From Escherichia phage vB_EcoM_OE5505: a stretch of DNA of 64,000 nucleotides. The stretch is from the sequence record NC_054926.1, one strand, 5' to 3'. A program made the position numbers and the translations under genes. How positions within the stretch are numbered: the stretch's first letter is position 1; each line of letters begins with the position of its first letter. The notes under the pieces were generated by a model. The model did not search any database and had not been told where the DNA came from. It saw only the letters and a program-made list of their open reading frames with translations. This document shows positions 2,900 to 61,281 of the stretch, piece after piece.

Positions 2900-3493
2900 T
2901 TATTTCAGAGAATTAATATATTCCTGAACATCGGCAGAGGTAGTTTCAACCCCAGAAATATTACCATTAAAGGTTTCAACTCGAGCAAGAGTATCTTCAA
3001 TATCAACCTTAGTCAGTGCTGCAATTTCAACTACATCATCAGCAGTACTAATTCCAAGGGCATTCGCTGCACGAGTTTCACGGATATATTCCAATTTAAC
3101 CGCAAGTTCTTGACGAGCATCATCTAACTCAACTACTTTCTTGGCGATTTCAATTCGCATTTCAGCATAACCGTCAGCCTTAGTAGTCAACTGCTCAGCT
3201 GTTCGACGATATAGTAAACCGAGTTTAGCATGCATTGTTACATCTTGGCCTTCGGAAAGAAGTTTACGAATTTCACGCTCTTTTGATTCGGCCTGTCGAT
3301 TCTTTTCGATAACAAGTTCACGAATACGTTTTTCTTCGTTAATAGATTTAACAGAAGCAGTTTTTAGATCTTTAATTTTATCAAGTAGTTTTGCTGCTGC
3401 AGCAGTATACTGTTCTTCGACAGATAGATTTTTAGCCATAGCAGAACCAAGTTTAGTGCGAATAAACTCAACAATTTTCTTCAGTGTGTTCAT
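2900..3493 (-). CDS. Hypothetical coiled-coil protein (T4 e.6 position)
   Basis: 197 aa ORF, strongly alpha-helical/charged heptad-like composition. Confidence 0.7.
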
Positions 3494-3594: not shown

Positions 3595-3978
3595 TTATTT
3601 CATATTATTGAAATATTCTTCTGCGATTTCGTCGTTATCATGGTAAACTTTAGAAGACAGTTTAACATAACCTTCTGCTGTGAACATATTAATCACAACT
3701 TTTACAGTATACCACTGACCGTCTTCATTACCCATTACTGCGTAAGTTTCAAACATCGGATGATCAGGACCGATAACTTTAATATCATTCACTGTACGAC
3801 CGAAATCTTCTGAAACGCATTTCATAAAGAAGTTGAACAGTTCGCCGTAATTATCCATTTCATTCTCCAAGTTGTTTTCTGTATCAGTAGTTGATAGTTG
3901 TATAGTACCATGGAAGAACAGAGATGTAAACAGTTTTGTGAAAAAATTTTTAGGGAATTCTAGGGCAGGGATGGGCAA
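3595..3978 (-). CDS. Hypothetical protein (T4 e.7 position)
   Basis: 127 aa ORF on same strand as neighbours. Confidence 0.6.
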   Translation of the reverse strand: MPIPALEFPKNFFTKLFTSLFFHGTIQLSTTDTENNLENEMDNYGELFNFFMKCVSEDFGRTVNDIKVIGPDHPMFETYAVMGNEDGQWYTVKVVINMFTAEGYVKLSSKVYHDNDEIAEEYFNNMK

Positions 3979-4054: not shown

Positions 4055-4079
4055 AAAAAGCCCTATCATTTAGATAGGG
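4055..4079 (-). terminator. Rho-independent terminator
   Basis: Minus-strand hairpin CCCTATC-TAAAT-GATAGGG followed by CTTTTT, just downstream of ORF ending at 4088. Confidence 0.6.
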
Positions 4080-4087
4080 ATTTAAAA

Positions 4088-4333
4088 TTATTTACCTAGT
4101 TTACTTATTATAGCTTCTGCAGCAGCTTTTAGCTTAGATGCAGTGTTAATACGATTTTTAATTTCAGTATACGCATCGCCAAGAACATCAAGGCTATCAG
4201 AATAAACACTTACACTATTGCGTTCGCTATTTGAAATAGAACCTTTAGTTTTGCGGTCAAAATCGGTGTACACGTCTTGAAGATCGCGGGCTGCCTTCTT
4301 TGCATCATCCAATGCATCAAGAGCTTTATTCAA
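4088..4333 (-). CDS. Internal-protein-like ORF, probable C-terminal part of a frameshifted IP gene
   Basis: 81 aa ORF with no ATG (only TTG start); contiguous with 4330-4650 in a different frame. Confidence 0.5.
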   Translation of the reverse strand: MNKALDALDDAKKAARDLQDVYTDFDRKTKGSISNSERNSVSVYSDSLDVLGDAYTEIKNRINTASKLKAAAEAIISKLGK

Positions 4334-4650
4334 AGCATTAACGTATTTTTAGTGTCGAACATATTCTTAGAAATTTTAACAGGTGCGCGTTCAGGAGTAG
4401 CTAACACAGATTTAGGAACCTGAGCGCCAGATGCCAATTTCTTAGAAATTTTGAAAAATGCTTTATTGAATTTATTTTCTTGACTCATTGTAAAAGAACT
4501 ATTATCGATGTTGTACATTTCAATAGCTTTAGCTTTCCACTTAAGAAAATCGCCGCGGTCTTTTGGGTCCAATTGGAAGAATACTTTAGTAAGATCTGCT
4601 TCAGATGGTAATTTTGCTGCTTCGGTTAAAAATTCGGCATAGGTTTTCAT
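4330..4650 (-). CDS. Capsid-targeted internal protein (IP-like), N-terminal part
   Basis: Starts MKTYAEFLTEA, matching the T4 internal-protein capsid targeting sequence (MKTYQEFIAE-type); Ala/Lys-rich. Confidence 0.7.
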   Translation of the reverse strand: MKTYAEFLTEAAKLPSEADLTKVFFQLDPKDRGDFLKWKAKAIEMYNIDNSSFTMSQENKFNKAFFKISKKLASGAQVPKSVLATPERAPVKISKNMFDTKNTLML

Positions 4651-4740
4651 TTAAAATCCTTGAAATAATTTATCGGTTGGTTATTAATTATTTATTACTT
4701 TGTTACTATCCGTAACAGCGTTATCCGAGTGATTCAAACT

Positions 4741-4768
4741 AAAAAGCCCCAACCTTTCGGTCGGGGCT
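4741..4768 (-). terminator. Rho-independent terminator (copy 1 of duplicated element)
   Basis: Minus-strand AGCCCCGACC-GAAA-GGTTGGGGCT followed by TTTTT; downstream of ORF ending 4776. Confidence 0.65.
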
Positions 4769-4775
4769 AAGAATG

Positions 4776-5210
4776 TCATTTGATTTGTTTAGCAGACCAA
4801 ATGCGGTCTTTAATAATTTTTTGGATGTCTTCAACATACTCAAGAGAGTGAACATGTGGATTATCTTTGAAACTATAAGCACGGGCTAACTTTTGGCCTT
4901 CGGTTTTGATTACTAAAAGCTCTTTAAGGATAGCTTCATATTTAGCGATAATTCCTTTAACGATATTTTTTTCTTGTGCCGCTTTAGGATCTGCTTTAGG
5001 AGCAGGTTTACCCGAAGCCTTTGCAAAAGCAGCGCCAGTAGCAACTAAACTTTTCCAGGCCATACTAACTGCATTTCCCGTAAATCCTTCCGCTTTCATG
5101 TCGCGTGCAAACTGGAATCGCGATTCATCAGAAGCATCTTTATAGGAATAATTTACCCGCGGCAATGGCAGCTTTTGCAACAGCTTGAATTTCGGTGCTA
5201 GATGCTTCAT
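4776..5210 (-). CDS. Internal-protein-like protein, C-terminal part (frame-shifted relative to its CTS leader)
   Basis: 144 aa ORF; Ala/Lys-rich; N-terminal 22 codons overlap CTS-leader ORF in another frame. Confidence 0.6.
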   Translation of the reverse strand: MKHLAPKFKLLQKLPLPRVNYSYKDASDESRFQFARDMKAEGFTGNAVSMAWKSLVATGAAFAKASGKPAPKADPKAAQEKNIVKGIIAKYEAILKELLVIKTEGQKLARAYSFKDNPHVHSLEYVEDIQKIIKDRIWSAKQIK

Positions 5211-5250
5211 TTAACACCGCTTCATTTAAAAATTGAGTATATGATTTCAT
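5140..5250 (-). CDS. IP capsid-targeting leader ORF (MKSYTQFLNEA...), 36 codons then stop
   Basis: ATG at 5248-5250 preceded by AGGAAATAAG RBS and late promoter; CTS-like N-terminus; stops at 5140. Confidence 0.45.
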   Translation of the reverse strand: MKSYTQFLNEAVLNEASSTEIQAVAKAAIAAGKLFL

Positions 5251-5288: not shown

Positions 5289-5296
5289 TATTTATA
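5289..5296 (-). promoter_or_regulatory. T4-type late promoter box TATAAATA
   Basis: TATAAATA on minus strand about 40 nt upstream of CTS-leader ATG at 5250. Confidence 0.55.
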
Positions 5297-5298
5297 CC

Positions 5299-5326
5299 AA
5301 AAAGCCCCAACCTTTCGGTCGGGGCT
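5299..5326 (-). terminator. Rho-independent terminator (copy 2, identical to 4741-4768)
   Basis: Identical hairpin plus T-run; lies between the stable-RNA region and the IP late promoter. Confidence 0.6.
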
Positions 5327-5633: not shown

Positions 5634-5984
5634 TTAATATTCTTTTAAAGAATCAATATATTCACGGCGTTTACGCCACAAATCAATTGCTTCATACGCG
5701 GATTCAGCATTTCGAATTAGCCGGCATTTATGTAAAGACTTATGATTTTGATATTGTGTAGATAACGGAATTGTATCTAAAAGGTCTTTACGATCAAAAT
5801 ATTCGTAACCATCTAAACCAAATGAACGATTTTTGAGAAATTGCCAATGACCATATTCGTTTTCGACATAAACATAATCTGCATGCTGATAAAGCAAATT
5901 AATTACACGTTCAGAAATAACAGTATCATTATGATTAAAATAGAATGTTAAATCATGAACTACTAAATAAACATTACCTTTCAT
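5634..5984 (-). CDS. Hypothetical protein within tRNA cluster
   Basis: 116 aa ORF between tRNA-Arg and the RNA region, same strand. Confidence 0.6.
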   Translation of the reverse strand: MKGNVYLVVHDLTFYFNHNDTVISERVINLLYQHADYVYVENEYGHWQFLKNRSFGLDGYEYFDRKDLLDTIPLSTQYQNHKSLHKCRLIRNAESAYEAIDLWRKRREYIDSLKEY

Positions 5985-6002
5985 ATTTTCCTCACTTATA
6001 AT

Positions 6003-6078
6003 TGGTCGAGGCAGTAGGGATCGAACCTACGACCTAGGACTTAGAAGGTCCTTGCTCTTCCTTCTGAGCTATGCCCCG
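6003..6078 (-). tRNA. tRNA-Arg (anticodon UCU)
   Basis: Hand-folded cloverleaf, 76 nt, anticodon loop CUUCUAA, T-loop TTCGATC, CCA encoded. Confidence 0.85.
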
Positions 6079-6082
6079 TAAT

Positions 6083-6158
6083 TGGGGTGACCGATGGGAG
6101 TCGAACCCATGACTACGAGAATCACAATCTCGAGTTCTACCAACTGAACTACGGCCAC
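6083..6158 (-). tRNA. tRNA-His (anticodon GUG)
   Basis: 76 nt cloverleaf, anticodon loop UUGUGAU, discriminator C73 typical of tRNA-His; closely resembles E. coli tRNA-His as recalled. Confidence 0.8.
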
Positions 6159-6272
6159 ATTAATACCTACTCCAACAATCAAGATGTCTTCACACGAAAT
6201 TAAGAGAAGAGTGATCAGTTCAACCCCTATAATCGCGTCAAGTAGATATTAATGTGACAGTTGTCACAAATT

Positions 6273-6347
6273 TGGCGGACGTGATAGGATTCGAACCTAT
6301 AACCAATCGCTTAACAGGCGATCGCTCTGCCATTGAGCTACACATCC
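6273..6347 (-). tRNA. tRNA-Asn (anticodon GUU)
   Basis: 75 nt cloverleaf, anticodon loop CUGUUAA, T-loop TTCGAAT, CCA encoded. Confidence 0.8.
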
Positions 6348-9060: not shown

Positions 9061-9294
9061 TTATTTTTTACGAAAAATTGATTTATTTTCTGCTGCCCAT
9101 TTTTCAATAACTGCAGCAGGACCAGTAACAACAATTTTATCACCGTAATCTTCTGCGGCGAGTTGACCGAAATTATCTAATGCATCACGAAGAACTCCAT
9201 GAGGCATTTCACCCATTTTATCTTTCTTGCCAGTGTAAATAAACTCAACTTTTACATCAGCAGTTTCAGCAATAAATTCTTGGTAAGTTTTCAT
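9061..9294 (-). CDS. Capsid-targeted internal protein (IPI-like)
   Basis: Starts MKTYQEFIAE (canonical T4 IP capsid targeting sequence) at second ATG; 77 aa. Confidence 0.8.
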   Translation of the reverse strand: MKTYQEFIAETADVKVEFIYTGKKDKMGEMPHGVLRDALDNFGQLAAEDYGDKIVVTGPAAVIEKWAAENKSIFRKK

Positions 9295-9319: not shown

Positions 9320-9382
9320 GATAGGGTAATAGTATCACAACTAAAACCCTATGTAAACAACTTTGTGAAATTATTTTAAATC
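9320..9382 (-). repeat. Cassette junction repeat (hairpin plus 33-bp 3-prime-end module, copy B)
   Basis: 33 bp 9350-9382 identical to 9681-9713; preceded by hairpin ATAGGGT...ACCCTAT. Confidence 0.65.
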
Positions 9383-9628
9383 TTCTAATCGTTTCTTCAT
9401 CTTAGAACCATTTTTAGCAATTTCTCCTGCATCGGAGCATAATGCTAAAAGTGCTTTAACTTTAGTTTGGTCTCCTTTAAAAGATGAAGGATCGACCGCA
9501 GCAGCAAGTTCTTTAATACGAGAGAAAAGACGCTCAGCTTCAGCTAAAGCCATTCCAAGCTTTACTTCCATACCGTGGGAAGATTCAGTGATAGTAGTTT
9601 TTGTAGCAAACTCTTTGAAAGTTTTCAT
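9371..9628 (-). CDS. Internal-protein-like protein
   Basis: 85 aa, starts MKTFKEFATK (CTS-like), ends EDLK like 57B; preceded by AGGAAA RBS. Confidence 0.7.
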   Translation of the reverse strand: MKTFKEFATKTTITESSHGMEVKLGMALAEAERLFSRIKELAAAVDPSSFKGDQTKVKALLALCSDAGEIAKNGSKMKKRLEDLK

Positions 9629-43023: not shown

Positions 43024-43049
43024 AAAGGGACCGAAAGGTCCCCCTTTTT
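43024..43049. terminator. Bidirectional terminator between gene 24 and rnlB
   Basis: GGGACC-GAAA-GGTCCC hairpin flanked by A-run and T-run. Confidence 0.65.
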
Positions 43050-44347: not shown

Positions 44348-44545
44348 TCACCTTTTATTAATATGTCTTTTTCTATAGACAACTTTTTCTCGAGTTTCAA
44401 ATTTATTCTTAGCAGTCATAGCTCGAGCCCATAATACAGCCACTTCTTTCGCCTGTAAGTTTAATTCACGAGCAATTTCAATGAATGACTTTCCAGACTC
44501 ATGAAGAGTAAACACCACAACCTCAGTTCTCATAATCAATCTCAT
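44348..44545 (-). CDS. 24.3: Hypothetical protein 24.3
   Basis: 65 aa ORF, basic. Confidence 0.7.
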   Translation of the reverse strand: MRLIMRTEVVVFTLHESGKSFIEIARELNLQAKEVAVLWARAMTAKNKFETREKVVYRKRHINKR

Positions 44546-56930: not shown

Positions 56931-58982
56931 CTACATTTTGAACTTTTTAGACATTCCGTTGATGTTAACCAAAGAAGCTAAGATTTGAGAAACTTCGCTT
57001 TCCTCTTCTTTTGATTCTTCTACAAGGAATTGATTAAATCCAGCCATTGGACGAACTTCACCAGTTTCCATTAGATGGTCGCCATCATATACTGATTCTT
57101 CTAATTGTTCAGAAGGAGGAACGATTGTACCTTCGATTAGATACTTGTTATAAGCAGTTTCTTTCATAAAGTAAGTACTTACTTTATTAATCTTCAGTAA
57201 AATTCCACGTGGTAGAATAATTTCAGCTTCTGACGGAAATCCTGATAAATGACCCGGAACGATAACTTTGATTCGCTCAGCTCCTTTAATTACCATACCC
57301 ACGCTAGTTTCAGCATCTTCATTAGCATATGTAGAATGACTACCCATATGCATCAAATCTTCTGCATCAACGGAACCTTCTCCTTCACCAGAAAATACTG
57401 CGCCGGAATCATCTAGAGCCATATAGTTTTTACCATGCTCACCGAAGATATTTGGTTTAAGCGATGTGGATACGAAGTTCTTGAAATAGAACATTTTATT
57501 TTCAATGTTATGACGCAAAGTTTTAAAGGTAACTTCTTGTCCACGGTAAAGTGTAGTTCCTGGAGGAAGAACTGAACCTTTAGCGAATGCAGAATCAAGC
57601 GTCTCAATATGTTTAATAGCTCGTTCCATATATTCTTCACGGGTAGAATCTGGTTTACCCAAAAGGAACGAGTTCATTTCAACATATGAATCTGCACAAT
57701 AATCTTCAATTACATCAGATTCAGCTTGAGTTAATCCTTTTGGAGTTACTTCAGTGCTTGCGTATTCATATGCCTGAGCAGCAGATTCATTAATCAATTT
57801 ATAAATGCCATTCATGACAAATTGAATAATAGCTGTCTTTTCATCTGGCGTAGCTTTAGAACCTTTAACCAAATCATTGATAATTTTCTTAATAACATCA
57901 AAGCTATTAGAAATATTAATATCAGCAAGATCGCTTAAAATTTTATCAGTCTTATAATCAAAGAATTCTTTATTCTTTAAATATTCTTGAGAACCTTGAT
58001 ATGTTATATCGCTCTGTAACTTGATAGATGGATCACGTAAACGTGCATGGGCTAATGCAATATGATTTCGGAAGCTTTCGAGTTCATAATCACTAGATTT
58101 AAAACGAGAAGCGCTTCTCATACCGCCTATAGCTCCTTTGCTGAAGTTTGAACCAATTTGAATAACGCCAGAGTTCATTGGTCCTTCTGCTTTATACACC
58201 GGAACTTTAGATTCAAACTCTTGATATTTCTTAGCAGCGAAGCTATCACCCTGAAGTGAAGCATCAACAGTAGAATATTGAGCTTGTGCTGCTAATCGAC
58301 GACTAATTTTAGTTTTCTGAATAACAGCTTGGTCCGTGCGCTTATCATTTTCTAAAGCAATAGAAGCAGCAACAGCTTTAGGAACAGCATTACCTGTTTT
58401 AACATCTACATAAACATCACCAACCTTTGATTCAACTTTTGTGAATAACTCAGTTGAAATAGGAGGTACACCTGGAATGTCTTCTAAATTGGCATTTTTA
58501 CGATAAACCATAATATATGCGTACTTTTTATCATAATCCCAGATTTCCTTTAAAAGAACATATCGACCTGCTCCTTTAGTACGTACTAAACGGTCAGCAA
58601 TAACTTGCATTTGACGAGCTGCGCCATTTGTTTTACTCTTTAGTACACGGAATAAGCACGCGTCAATTTTATACTGCTTCATTGTTTGAAGAGCAGTATC
58701 AAAAACGGCATTAATGACACCAATTGGATTTCCACCCAAGTTTTTAAGCTTAACTAATGATAGTTTCTCATTAACACCTATCATTACGATATGCATCATT
58801 TTATCGCCTGGCTTAACGTTTTTATTCGTATCACCACCAGAGGTGTATGTACAAAATCTAAATCCAGGAAGCACGCTTTCTTCGCCGGCTTGAATAGCAA
58901 AAATTTGTGGTATTTTATGCTTAGGATTTAAGTTAACAACCGGCGCCGAAGCGCCGTCAAATAATTCTGTAATAAGTTCCAT
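56931..58982 (-). CDS. Alt-like ADP-ribosyltransferase paralog
   Basis: 683 aa; N-terminus MELITELFD; R-S-ExE signature (LYRGQ, FVSTSL, EAEIILPRG); conserved C-terminal YDGDHLMETGEV. Confidence 0.85.
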   Translation of the reverse strand: MELITELFDGASAPVVNLNPKHKIPQIFAIQAGEESVLPGFRFCTYTSGGDTNKNVKPGDKMMHIVMIGVNEKLSLVKLKNLGGNPIGVINAVFDTALQTMKQYKIDACLFRVLKSKTNGAARQMQVIADRLVRTKGAGRYVLLKEIWDYDKKYAYIMVYRKNANLEDIPGVPPISTELFTKVESKVGDVYVDVKTGNAVPKAVAASIALENDKRTDQAVIQKTKISRRLAAQAQYSTVDASLQGDSFAAKKYQEFESKVPVYKAEGPMNSGVIQIGSNFSKGAIGGMRSASRFKSSDYELESFRNHIALAHARLRDPSIKLQSDITYQGSQEYLKNKEFFDYKTDKILSDLADINISNSFDVIKKIINDLVKGSKATPDEKTAIIQFVMNGIYKLINESAAQAYEYASTEVTPKGLTQAESDVIEDYCADSYVEMNSFLLGKPDSTREEYMERAIKHIETLDSAFAKGSVLPPGTTLYRGQEVTFKTLRHNIENKMFYFKNFVSTSLKPNIFGEHGKNYMALDDSGAVFSGEGEGSVDAEDLMHMGSHSTYANEDAETSVGMVIKGAERIKVIVPGHLSGFPSEAEIILPRGILLKINKVSTYFMKETAYNKYLIEGTIVPPSEQLEESVYDGDHLMETGEVRPMAGFNQFLVEESKEEESEVSQILASLVNINGMSKKFKM

Positions 58983-58985
58983 GAT

Positions 58986-61040
58986 TTATCCTTGAACGAA
59001 CTTGTAAGGCATGTTTGCAATATCTATACAAGACGCAATAATTCCAAGAGATGATTCTACTTTCTGTTTAACATTTGATGAAACAAATGATGCAAAGTCA
59101 ACTCTGTCTTCTACTTCAATATCACCTGTCATTGTAACTACTTCGCCGGTTTCCATTAGACGGTCACCGTCATAAATTACCGATTCGGTGAGTTCTTCTG
59201 TGGTCATAACTTCAGCTTGAATAAGCTTGTTGTTAGTTTTAACTGTTCCATCATTGTAAGATGCATCGGTTATTTTATTAACTTTGACCATTAATCCACG
59301 TGGCAAAATGACTTCCATTTCATTTGAAGGTGCTAAACTTCCACCTGGTAAAACAACATTGACTTTATCAGCCCCAGTAATAACCCATCCAATTCCAACT
59401 AAATTATCGCTAGAATTTACTAGTCCTTCATCAGTTTTATCAATAGAAACACTTAAACGCTTTTCGTCTGGTAAAACACCCACAGATGAATCAGTCATCC
59501 AGGTACCAAAAATATTTGGATATAATGATGTTGACACAAAATTTCTAAAATAAAAAACTCGATTTTTTACCAGTGCTTCATATATTGAAGGTAACATTCG
59601 TTGTGAACGATACAAAGTAATACCTTTTGGTAATCGTTCACCATTTTTAAAGGCTGAATCTAAATTATCAATAGCTTTTTCTATGTCAGATGCTGTCAAA
59701 ATACTTGTACGCTCATCTGGATTATATAATCCCAAAAGAGCATTATTTATGTCTACATATCCTGAACCTACGTATTCACGAATTCCGCGTTTTTGTGCTG
59801 GTGTGTATTTAGATGAATCTTTATTTTCGACTATAGGATGTAATGACCATCCAGCGGTAAGAGCATATCCACGCAATTCTCTTCGAATAATCTTTGTTTT
59901 TATTGCATTCCAAGAATTTTGTACTAACTCATTCGCAGCATCTTGATTTAAATGCGAATGCTTGTTAATGTTTCTTTCTAACCAAGCACCTTTATATTTT
60001 TCTAAAGTATCATCAACTATAGAAGCAATAGTTTCTAAAGTTTTTATTGAAGTAATAGATTCTTTTCGTAATCTTTCTAAAGCTTTATTTTTTATTTCTG
60101 CATTAACATCAGATTCTTTATCTTCAGGAATTATAGAAGCTTCTCTGAATGCCATTCCAGCTGTAACACTACTAAGAGCATTCTCTAATGCAAATCCTGA
60201 AGTAGAAATAACAGTTAATTCATTAGCGTCAGAAATTAAAGGAGCGTCAGCAGGTTTATTTAATTCTGCTGCTGAAGCCTCAAATTTTTGAAACATCGGC
60301 GTTTCAAATCTAGAAGATTCCAATGATTGACTTTGCGCAATTGCTCTACGGGAAATTTTAACTTTAACGATTACAGCTTGGTCAGAACGTTTATCATTTT
60401 CTTGCGCAATAGATGCTGCAATTGCCTCATTTTTAGTTACTTGAGCTCCAGTATCTTTATTGATATAAACATCACCGACCTTCGATTCAACTTTAGTAAA
60501 GAGCTCAGTACTAATTTCCGGAACTCCCGGAATGTCTTCTAGTGATACATTTTTGCGATGTATAAGAATATATGCATACTTTTTATCGTAATCCCAGAGT
60601 TCCTTAAGAAGGACGTATCTGCCACCTGAACGACTGCGGATAAGTCTATCAGCAATAAGTTGAATTTGACGAGCTTGACCAGCAGTTTTAGACTTAAGAA
60701 TACGGAGCATGCAGGCATCAATTTTATACTGACGCATCGTTTGCATTGCAACTGTAAAAACTGAATTGATATAATTAATTGGGCTTGGACCAAGACCTTT
60801 TAATTTAGCAATTGAACCTTTAGCAGTTAATGTAAAAGGAACAATATGCATCATTTTATCGCCCATCTTTAAATCGCGATTAGTATCACCTCCAGATGTA
60901 TAGGTACATAAACGAAAGCCTGGTTGTTCAATTGCATCATCAACATGAACTGAAAAAATTTGCGGTATTTTCTTCTTTGGATTTAAGTTTGTAATCGGAA
61001 GAGTAGTATCTTCGTCAAATAATTCTGTAATAAGTTCCAT
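58986..61040 (-). CDS. alt: Alt ADP-ribosyltransferase (virion-packaged, modifies host RNA polymerase)
   Basis: 682 aa from second Met; R-S-ExE signature (LYRSQ, FVSTSL, EMEVILPRG); adjacent to gene 30 as in T4. Confidence 0.9.
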   Translation of the reverse strand: MELITELFDEDTTLPITNLNPKKKIPQIFSVHVDDAIEQPGFRLCTYTSGGDTNRDLKMGDKMMHIVPFTLTAKGSIAKLKGLGPSPINYINSVFTVAMQTMRQYKIDACMLRILKSKTAGQARQIQLIADRLIRSRSGGRYVLLKELWDYDKKYAYILIHRKNVSLEDIPGVPEISTELFTKVESKVGDVYINKDTGAQVTKNEAIAASIAQENDKRSDQAVIVKVKISRRAIAQSQSLESSRFETPMFQKFEASAAELNKPADAPLISDANELTVISTSGFALENALSSVTAGMAFREASIIPEDKESDVNAEIKNKALERLRKESITSIKTLETIASIVDDTLEKYKGAWLERNINKHSHLNQDAANELVQNSWNAIKTKIIRRELRGYALTAGWSLHPIVENKDSSKYTPAQKRGIREYVGSGYVDINNALLGLYNPDERTSILTASDIEKAIDNLDSAFKNGERLPKGITLYRSQRMLPSIYEALVKNRVFYFRNFVSTSLYPNIFGTWMTDSSVGVLPDEKRLSVSIDKTDEGLVNSSDNLVGIGWVITGADKVNVVLPGGSLAPSNEMEVILPRGLMVKVNKITDASYNDGTVKTNNKLIQAEVMTTEELTESVIYDGDRLMETGEVVTMTGDIEVEDRVDFASFVSSNVKQKVESSLGIIASCIDIANMPYKFVQG

Positions 61041-61062
61041 CATAGCCTCTCTAGTGTTTATT

Positions 61063-61070
61063 CTATTTAT
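61063..61070 (-). promoter_or_regulatory. Late promoter TATAAATA upstream of alt
   Basis: TATAAATA on minus strand about 23 nt upstream of alt start. Confidence 0.5.
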
Positions 61071-61075
61071 AAAAT

Positions 61076-61093
61076 TAAAGGCCCGAAGGCCTT
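61076..61093 (-). terminator. Hairpin terminator after small ORF 61093-61281
   Basis: AAAGGCC-TTCG-GGCCTTT tetraloop hairpin. Confidence 0.5.
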
Positions 61094-61281
61094 TAATAAT
61101 CTAGTGGTAAGAGAGTACGGTATATTTCAAACTTTGGACCTTTTTCATAGGCATCAAATGTTTCTGTGAATTTATTATAAGCGTATGCATCTACAAATTC
61201 GAGAATGACTTGTGATACAGAAGTAGAAACATCTCCACCTTCTTTTTGAGCAATGACAATTGTTTCTAAGTAAGCTTTCAT
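61093..61281 (-). CDS. Hypothetical small protein between alt and gene 30
   Basis: 62 aa ORF; ATGA overlap with gene 30 stop. Confidence 0.65.
   Translation of the reverse strand: MKAYLETIVIAQKEGGDVSTSVSQVILEFVDAYAYNKFTETFDAYEKGPKFEIYRTLLPLDY

Follow-up and report, generated by a model that had tools for sequence, protein, structure and literature searches.

An apparent single-base deletion splits a gene with a predicted capsid-targeting sequence in Escherichia phage vB_EcoM_OE5505

The diverse internal proteins of T-even phages are believed to counter restriction or to help take over the host. They form a varied, exchangeable set with only the capsid-targeting sequence (CTS) in common, and they are engaged in an arms race between phage and host (PMC3012670). 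The IP genes of phage T4 are non-essential, and published mutagenesis assigns CTS positions 4 and 7 to targeting and positions 8 and 10 to cleavage by gp21, which cuts after L/I-X-E (PMC9026906). In T4 IPII and IPIII, the CTS has the sequence MKTYQEFIAE (PMC8442874).

We analysed 64,000 nucleotides of Escherichia phage vB_EcoM_OE5505 (NC_054926.1), a stretch referred to below as the window. It is a Tequatrovirus (T4-like) segment that carries e, nudE, e.2-e.8, the tRNA cluster, the ipI locus, 57B/57A, and genes 1, 3, 2, 4, 53 and 5 onwards. Positions 1-30 aligned to no close relative in megablast, and all matches began at position 31. Two tandem ADP-ribosyltransferase (Alt-like) genes of about 2 kb each occupy approximately 57,000-61,100 (minus strand), as in phages U115 and DalCa; relative to PYps5T, these genes exhibit in-frame 6-nt length polymorphisms at 58367 and 59113. 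The window belongs to a lineage without T4 e.7 between e.6 and e.8 (2900-3493 and 3595-3858, minus strand; compare 5969-6304 in T4). In T4, the interval from e.8 to the tRNA cluster contains rnaC and rnaD alone; the window has three extra ORFs there, namely two genes with a CTS and a 116-aa ORF at 5634-5984.

The first of these CTS genes, at 4088-4650, appears as two overlapping ORFs (Table 1). A sequence-only reading of the region had given the coordinates, N-terminus, final residues (...KNTLML) and TGA stop of ORF 4330-4650 exactly as we found them. It was also correct that ORF 4088-4333 (minus strand, 81 aa) contains no ATG and that a TTG is its first possible start. This TTG (4331-4333) overlaps the TGA of the preceding ORF (4330-4332) within cTTTGA and corresponds to codon L107 of the intact protein described below. 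Inspection of the sequence upstream of the TTG revealed no Shine-Dalgarno motif.

Table 1. Features of the two CTS genes and small indels of the window. Small indels are those whose length is not a multiple of three; A6 and A5 denote runs of six and five A residues.
Feature	Position	Strand	Description
Intrinsic-terminator-like hairpin and T-run	4061..4079	-	Closes gene cassette; annotated terminator in DalCa and fPS-90
3' part of disrupted gene, -1 frame	4088..4345	-	Native codons 103-187 and stop; phrog_2280 positions 101-178
5' fragment of disrupted gene	4330..4650	-	106 aa, ATG, MKTYAEFLTEA...KNTLML, TGA; phrog_2280 positions 1-95
Lesion, A6 to A5 on gene strand (T5 on plus strand)	4346..4350	-	Codons K101-K102; A6 in 13 of 13 fetched loci
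Capsid-targeting sequence MKTYAEFLTE, codons 1-10	4621..4650	-	Predicted gp21 cleavage after L-T-E, before A11
Shine-Dalgarno-like AAGGA	4657..4661	-	6 nt before the ATG of 4330-4650; ribosome-binding site annotated at the corresponding position in U115
24-nt terminator hairpin AGCCCCGACCGAAAGGTTGGGGCT, between the two CTS genes	4745..4768	-	Identical copy at 5303..5326
Neighbour gene, 3' part, out of frame with its own start	4776..5149	-	157 aa when intact
Neighbour gene, 5' fragment	5140..5250	-	Native to K33, then LFL and stop; 36 aa
Neighbour gene, second private lesion, extra T on gene strand	5150..5151	-	GGTAAATTATTCC; GGTAAATATTCC in relatives; 8 of 8 loci lack the extra T
Consensus T4 late promoter TATAAATA	5289..5296	-	39 nt upstream of neighbour ATG; fPS-90 annotates a predicted late promoter there
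Upstream copy of 24-nt terminator hairpin AGCCCCGACCGAAAGGTTGGGGCT	5303..5326	-	Identical to 4745..4768
Indel	618		Intergenic; T4's own allele
Indel	2883		Intergenic terminator; in 20 other records
Indel	4346		187-aa gene; in no other public sequence
Indel	5150		Neighbour gene; in no other public sequence
Indel	22354		Intergenic; common to U115 and DalCa
Indel (2 nt)	43040		Intergenic terminator; left out of sharing check
Indel	44353		Last codons of small ORF; in 36 other records
Indel	56578		Intergenic terminator; in 17 other records

The N-terminus had been taken to be of the capsid-targeting type, and this is borne out by MKTYAEFLTE, which is identical to the IPII/IPIII CTS at 7 of 10 positions and retains Y4, F7, L/I8 and E10. 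The putative cleavage site L8-T9-E10/A11 (the slash marks the cut) is the sole L/I-x-E in the 187-aa protein. After removal of the CTS, the intact form would be a 19.6-kDa protein with a pI of 9.54 (K+R 32, D+E 23). The description of the gene as IP-like thus stands for its targeting peptide, size and basic charge, but fails past residue 12: BLASTP against T4 IPIII and IPII aligned residues 1-12 only and found no similarity beyond them. T4 IPI, IPII and IPIII match their own PHROGs (phrog_4363, phrog_7857 and phrog_5341), which are annotated as 'internal virion protein', whereas the gene in the window matches phrog_2280, a family with no function assigned; homology to the three T4 proteins was not found. 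By these assignments, the gene belongs to none of the IPI, IPII or IPIII families. Searches of Pfam, NCBIfam and PDB sequences returned no match above threshold for the 187-aa protein, a literature search found no paper mentioning it, and all 163 records that carry it label it 'hypothetical protein'.

Its signal peptide, size and charge suggest that the gene product is probably packaged in the manner of an internal protein. By analogy with T4 IPIII, the CTS would dock the protein onto the prohead scaffolding core, the gp21 protease would then cut on the C-terminal side of L-x-E to release the CTS, and the resulting 19.6-kDa mature protein (pI 9.5) would stay in the head to be injected with the DNA. 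The gp20-gp24 block of the window, which includes the gene annotated 'prohead core scaffold protein and protease', aligns frameshift-free to PYps5T, U115 and DalCa.

We found that relatives carry this region as one gene. A 651-nt query over the region matched 163 phage records, each over at least 80% of the query length, and the best nucleotide matches showed 99.8% identity over 652 record bases, which amounts to one gap. DalCa, fPS-90, PYps5T and U115 each have one 564-nt CDS of 187 aa. With the intact protein as the tblastn query, every one of the 163 Tequatrovirus records carrying the gene gave a single-piece match, which covered the full 187 aa in 160 of them; two others covered residues 1-173, and one had a shorter, 85%-identical allele. 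In none of the 163 did tblastn reveal a split at the window's frameshift point. The 178-position profile of phrog_2280 was matched over its full length by an intact relative (positions 1-178, E 2e-53), and by the two halves in the window over 1-95 (E 8e-28) and 101-178 (E 8e-18). Because both halves match this one profile, we conclude from homology that 4088-4650 is one gene broken by a 1-nt frameshift and not a chance pair of ORFs. The sequence-only reading had proposed precisely such a split, attributed to a homopolymer, and had looked to T-even homologues for an answer; alignment to related T-even phages upholds the proposal, as they have an intact, one-piece gene of the predicted 187 aa.

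The same comparisons bear on a second possibility that had been raised, namely that the region contains two genes, one encoding a 106-aa CTS protein and the other an 81-aa protein initiated at the rare TTG start, perhaps via termination-reinitiation. A TTG that overlaps a TGA can allow weak reinitiation. However, all 163 matches are in one piece and none is split at this point, and the TTG is simply L107 within the intact gene, with no Shine-Dalgarno motif before it. The arrangement is private to the window and hence lacks any evolutionary record as a gene pair. No record among the 163 had homologues arranged as two genes with the same boundaries, and the two-gene reading is therefore out; we regard it as scarcely credible.

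Alignment also located the lesion. The window is identical to DalCa and fPS-90 over approximately 1,250 nt save for two single-base indels, a change from A6 to A5 in this gene and an added T. The gene strand of the window has ACT AAAAA TACG at the site where DalCa, fPS-90 and PYps5T have ACT AAAAAA TACG; in codons, ACT AAA AAA TAC GTT AAT GCT TTG in the relatives is ACT AAA AAT ACG TTA ATG CTT TGA in the window. Restoring one A at 4346-4350 yielded a 187-aa protein identical to DalCa_133. Repair had previously been proposed at CTTTG (4332-4334), and insertion of a T there does fuse the ORFs to 187 codons. The resulting protein is nonetheless wrong at five residues, with ...TKNTLMLLNKAL... in place of the true ...TKKYVNALNKAL..., and we rejected CTTTG as the repair site: the alignment puts the lost base in the A6 run, 12-18 nt upstream.

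A break at an A-run could in principle be bypassed during expression, by programmed -1 ribosomal frameshifting or by transcriptional slippage, with restoration of the full-length protein. The shift required is indeed -1, on the A-rich sequence ACT AAA AAT, and in E. coli lysine tRNA is slippery on A-rich stretches, such as dnaX-type sites. On the other hand, T AAA AAT does not fit the heptamer X XXY YYZ, slipping by -1 places the P-site tRNA on TAA, and efficient polymerase slippage requires a run longer than A5. In addition, the split layout is found in 0 of 163 relatives, and the neighbouring gene described below would need a separate +1 shift, for which there is no known signal. We consider such a bypass very improbable.

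Read without a bypass, the gene is predicted to give a product of 106 aa that consists of 101 native residues and five out-of-frame residues (NTLML) before the TGA; without its CTS, this truncated product would be 10.8 kDa. The exact 106-aa sequence is absent from protein records, as is the e.5-like protein of the window. AlphaFold2, run on a shallow alignment of 9 sequences, produced a model of low confidence (pLDDT 58.9, pTM 0.30), too uncertain to support a fold search, from which we took the secondary-structure layout alone: a helical module at the N-terminus (residues 17-73), followed by a disordered linker (76-98) and a long C-terminal helical hairpin (100-186). In this layout, the shift at codon 102 would remove the whole predicted C-terminal hairpin. 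The 106-aa product would keep the CTS and the N-terminal helical module, and the stump may still be packaged because its CTS is intact; most likely, it is non-functional. We view the 3' ORF of 81 codons as a relic whose translation is not expected, with trace reinitiation possible as the TTG overlaps the TGA.

The neighbouring CTS gene (4776-5250, minus strand) is split as well. In relatives, it encodes a 157-aa protein beginning MKSYTQFLNE/AVLNE/A...; in the window, it consists of a 36-aa stub and a 144-aa ORF that starts with ATG in another frame. Removal of the extra T at 5150-5151 yielded a protein identical to DalCa_134, and the intact neighbour matched phrog_2280 over its full length (E 2e-60). 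Both proteins match phrog_2280, yet compared pairwise they are alike in the CTS only, which weakens the label 'paralogue' for the neighbour. Its propeptide (5206-5250, minus strand) contains two tandem gp21-type sites, FLNE/A and VLNE/A, and in one relative (L013, 2127-2615) a duplication of AVLNE provides a third such site in a protein of 162 aa.

The two genes differ in their flanking signals. The neighbour lies behind a consensus late promoter (Table 1), whereas upstream of the 187-aa gene there is just a 7/8 late-promoter variant, AATAAATA, and a terminator hairpin stands between the two genes. The identical hairpins bracket the upstream cassette, and relatives with both genes carry two copies. 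A relative without the 157-aa gene (L018) retains one hairpin copy, an arrangement that fits loss of the cassette by recombination between the repeats.

Gene content at this locus varies among relatives: one gene or the other may be missing, and a truncated 119-aa allele and a 5-aa duplication also occur. The truncated allele, of the 157-aa gene, is found in the metagenomic relative L010 (2147-2506), which is without the 187-aa gene; a 202-aa ORF resembling HNH-type endonucleases lies nearby (388-996). Natural metagenomic chimeras exist as well. In one (P0010), the C-terminal half of the 187-aa protein is joined to an unrelated N-terminus; in the other (P0011), residues 97-122 are joined to the C-terminus of nudE, a fusion implying that several kb across e.2-e.8 were deleted. 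The locus adjoins the tRNA/segB recombination hotspot, and the SegB paper makes no mention of the two CTS genes. Judged from these comparisons, the locus is visibly dispensable and in flux.

We took a census of all indels between the 64-kb window and three relatives, among which eight small ones had lengths that are not multiples of three (Table 1). The alleles at 44353, 56578 and 2883 were searched with allele-specific 45-nt queries and double as positive controls. Corresponding allele-specific searches of 50,697 phage records found neither the 4346 nor the 5150 allele, and the 4346 allele was also absent from IMG/VR, metagenomes and GTDB genomes. One of the 63 A/T runs of at least six nucleotides is privately altered in the window. 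We rejected the idea that the assembly is generally indel-rich: apart from the two private lesions there are six small indels, and the five checked for sharing (all except the intergenic one at 43040) recur in other records.

Both lesions are thus private to this record, and two explanations for them have to be weighed. According to the first, both lesions in the record stem from errors of sequencing, assembly or consensus, and the phage itself carries A6, lacks the extra T and has two intact genes. One of the lesions, at 4346-4350, is a change in homopolymer length, the commonest class of platform error, and both private lesions sit on a 1.25-kb background with zero substitutions relative to DalCa and fPS-90, as consensus errors would look. 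The variable gene content of relatives also argues against genuine mutation, as a mixed phage population in the lysate could weaken the consensus locally and cluster errors there. Moreover, split genes occur in other deposited relatives, for example RNA ligase 2 in DalCa. In that record (MH992510.1; L021:42117-43121, records 104716-105720), RNA ligase 2 is given as two CDSs, DalCa_173 and DalCa_174; in U115 and PYps5T it is one 1,005-nt gene.

Other features of the window speak against error. Elsewhere in the 64 kb no private indel was confirmed, the five small indels checked for sharing (all but 43040) being natural alleles that other records share, and 62 of 63 long A/T runs are unaffected. 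The second lesion, in which a single T became two, is not a typical homopolymer error. The probability that two random errors would hit both of these adjacent, related genes once each is approximately 1e-4, a post hoc figure. Because the second private frameshift lies in the adjacent CTS gene of an otherwise clean assembly, we tilt towards genuine mutation. We therefore favour, with slightly better than even confidence, genuine, recent, strain-private loss-of-function mutations in two dispensable genes; error in the record, the less probable explanation, retains a substantial share of our expectation.

We propose the following course of events for the genuine double knockout. Between e.8 and the tRNA cluster, the phage would have carried two accessory cassettes, each encoding a small basic protein with a T4-type CTS. 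One A would have been lost from the A6 run of the gene at 4088-4650 by slippage of the Streisinger type, such that translation would now stop after 101 native and 5 foreign residues. Independently, the neighbouring CTS gene would have been knocked out by a T inserted at codon 34.

A further question is whether the two losses were selected. Loss of two injected proteins could have been advantageous on the host used for isolation or propagation, if the proteins trigger host defence or are costly, or if one loss relaxed selection on the partner. Consistent with selection, the sole two confirmed private indels in 64 kb strike adjacent genes with a common CTS and PHROG, and two indels in a 1.25-kb stretch free of substitutions exceed the neutral expectation; T-even internal proteins also take part in the host-phage arms race described above (PMC3012670). 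Set against this, the observation comes from one genome (n=1), no defence is known to sense these proteins, and either neutral decay of dispensable genes in laboratory passage or error explains the data alone. We judge it quite unlikely that both knockouts are real and selected. Similarly, we consider unlikely a coordinated, selected loss, which would imply that the CTS proteins of phrog_2280 work jointly or are detected jointly by a host defence, and that the phage could grow on its isolation host once both were gone.

We take the break to be an ordinary strain-private knockout (or, less likely, a sequencing slip); the layout of the genes is not a novel one. Its main relevance is to annotation: the region should be recorded as one frameshifted gene or pseudogene instead of two hypothetical proteins, and the neighbour likewise. 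In addition, phrog_2280, which is 'hypothetical' in 163 of 163 records, bears what reads as a T4-type capsid-targeting and cleavage signal, and its members are thus candidate injected proteins. Provided that the mutations are real, the phage represents a naturally occurring double knockout, and comparison with the near-identical, intact DalCa, fPS-90 and U115 could be used to find the function of the proteins. The coincidence of the two knockouts is the one mildly interesting point.

Streisinger-type frameshifts at A/T runs are known in T4 from rII and lysozyme e genetics. The change from A6 to A5 in an AT-rich T-even genome resembles them closely, as a textbook slippage product; the second lesion differs, as it duplicates a single T outside a long run. 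Relative to T4 IPII and IPIII, the 187-aa protein is alike in its CTS (7 of 10 positions identical) and in the size and charge predicted for its mature form (19.6 kDa and pI 9.5, compared with 20.4 kDa and pI 9.65 for mature IPIII), and its gene is likewise accessory and dispensable and shares a T-even genome with the gene for gp21. It differs in belonging to another PHROG and in its site, between e.8 and the tRNA cluster and not between denV and e. T4 itself is without the gene, its e.8-tRNA interval holding only rnaC and rnaD.

A further parallel is offered by the polymorphic, CTS-bearing IP genes described from T-even phages (Repoila et al. 1994, as related in PMC3012670 and PMC9026906). 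The locus in that account is the ipI region, which in the window holds two other, intact IP genes, each with a product identical to its DalCa counterpart: one at 9061-9294 (minus strand; 77 aa, MKTYQEFIAE/T..., phrog_8111), and one at 9371-9628 (minus strand; 85 aa, MKTFKEFATKTTITE..., a CTS or propeptide, phrog_3499). Both of these PHROGs carry the annotation 'internal virion protein'. The pattern, as given in those sources, is one of highly diverse small basic proteins that have the CTS alone in common and are swapped between close T-evens. The locus between e.8 and the tRNA cluster fits this pattern, which it displays as presence or absence, truncation and chimeras.
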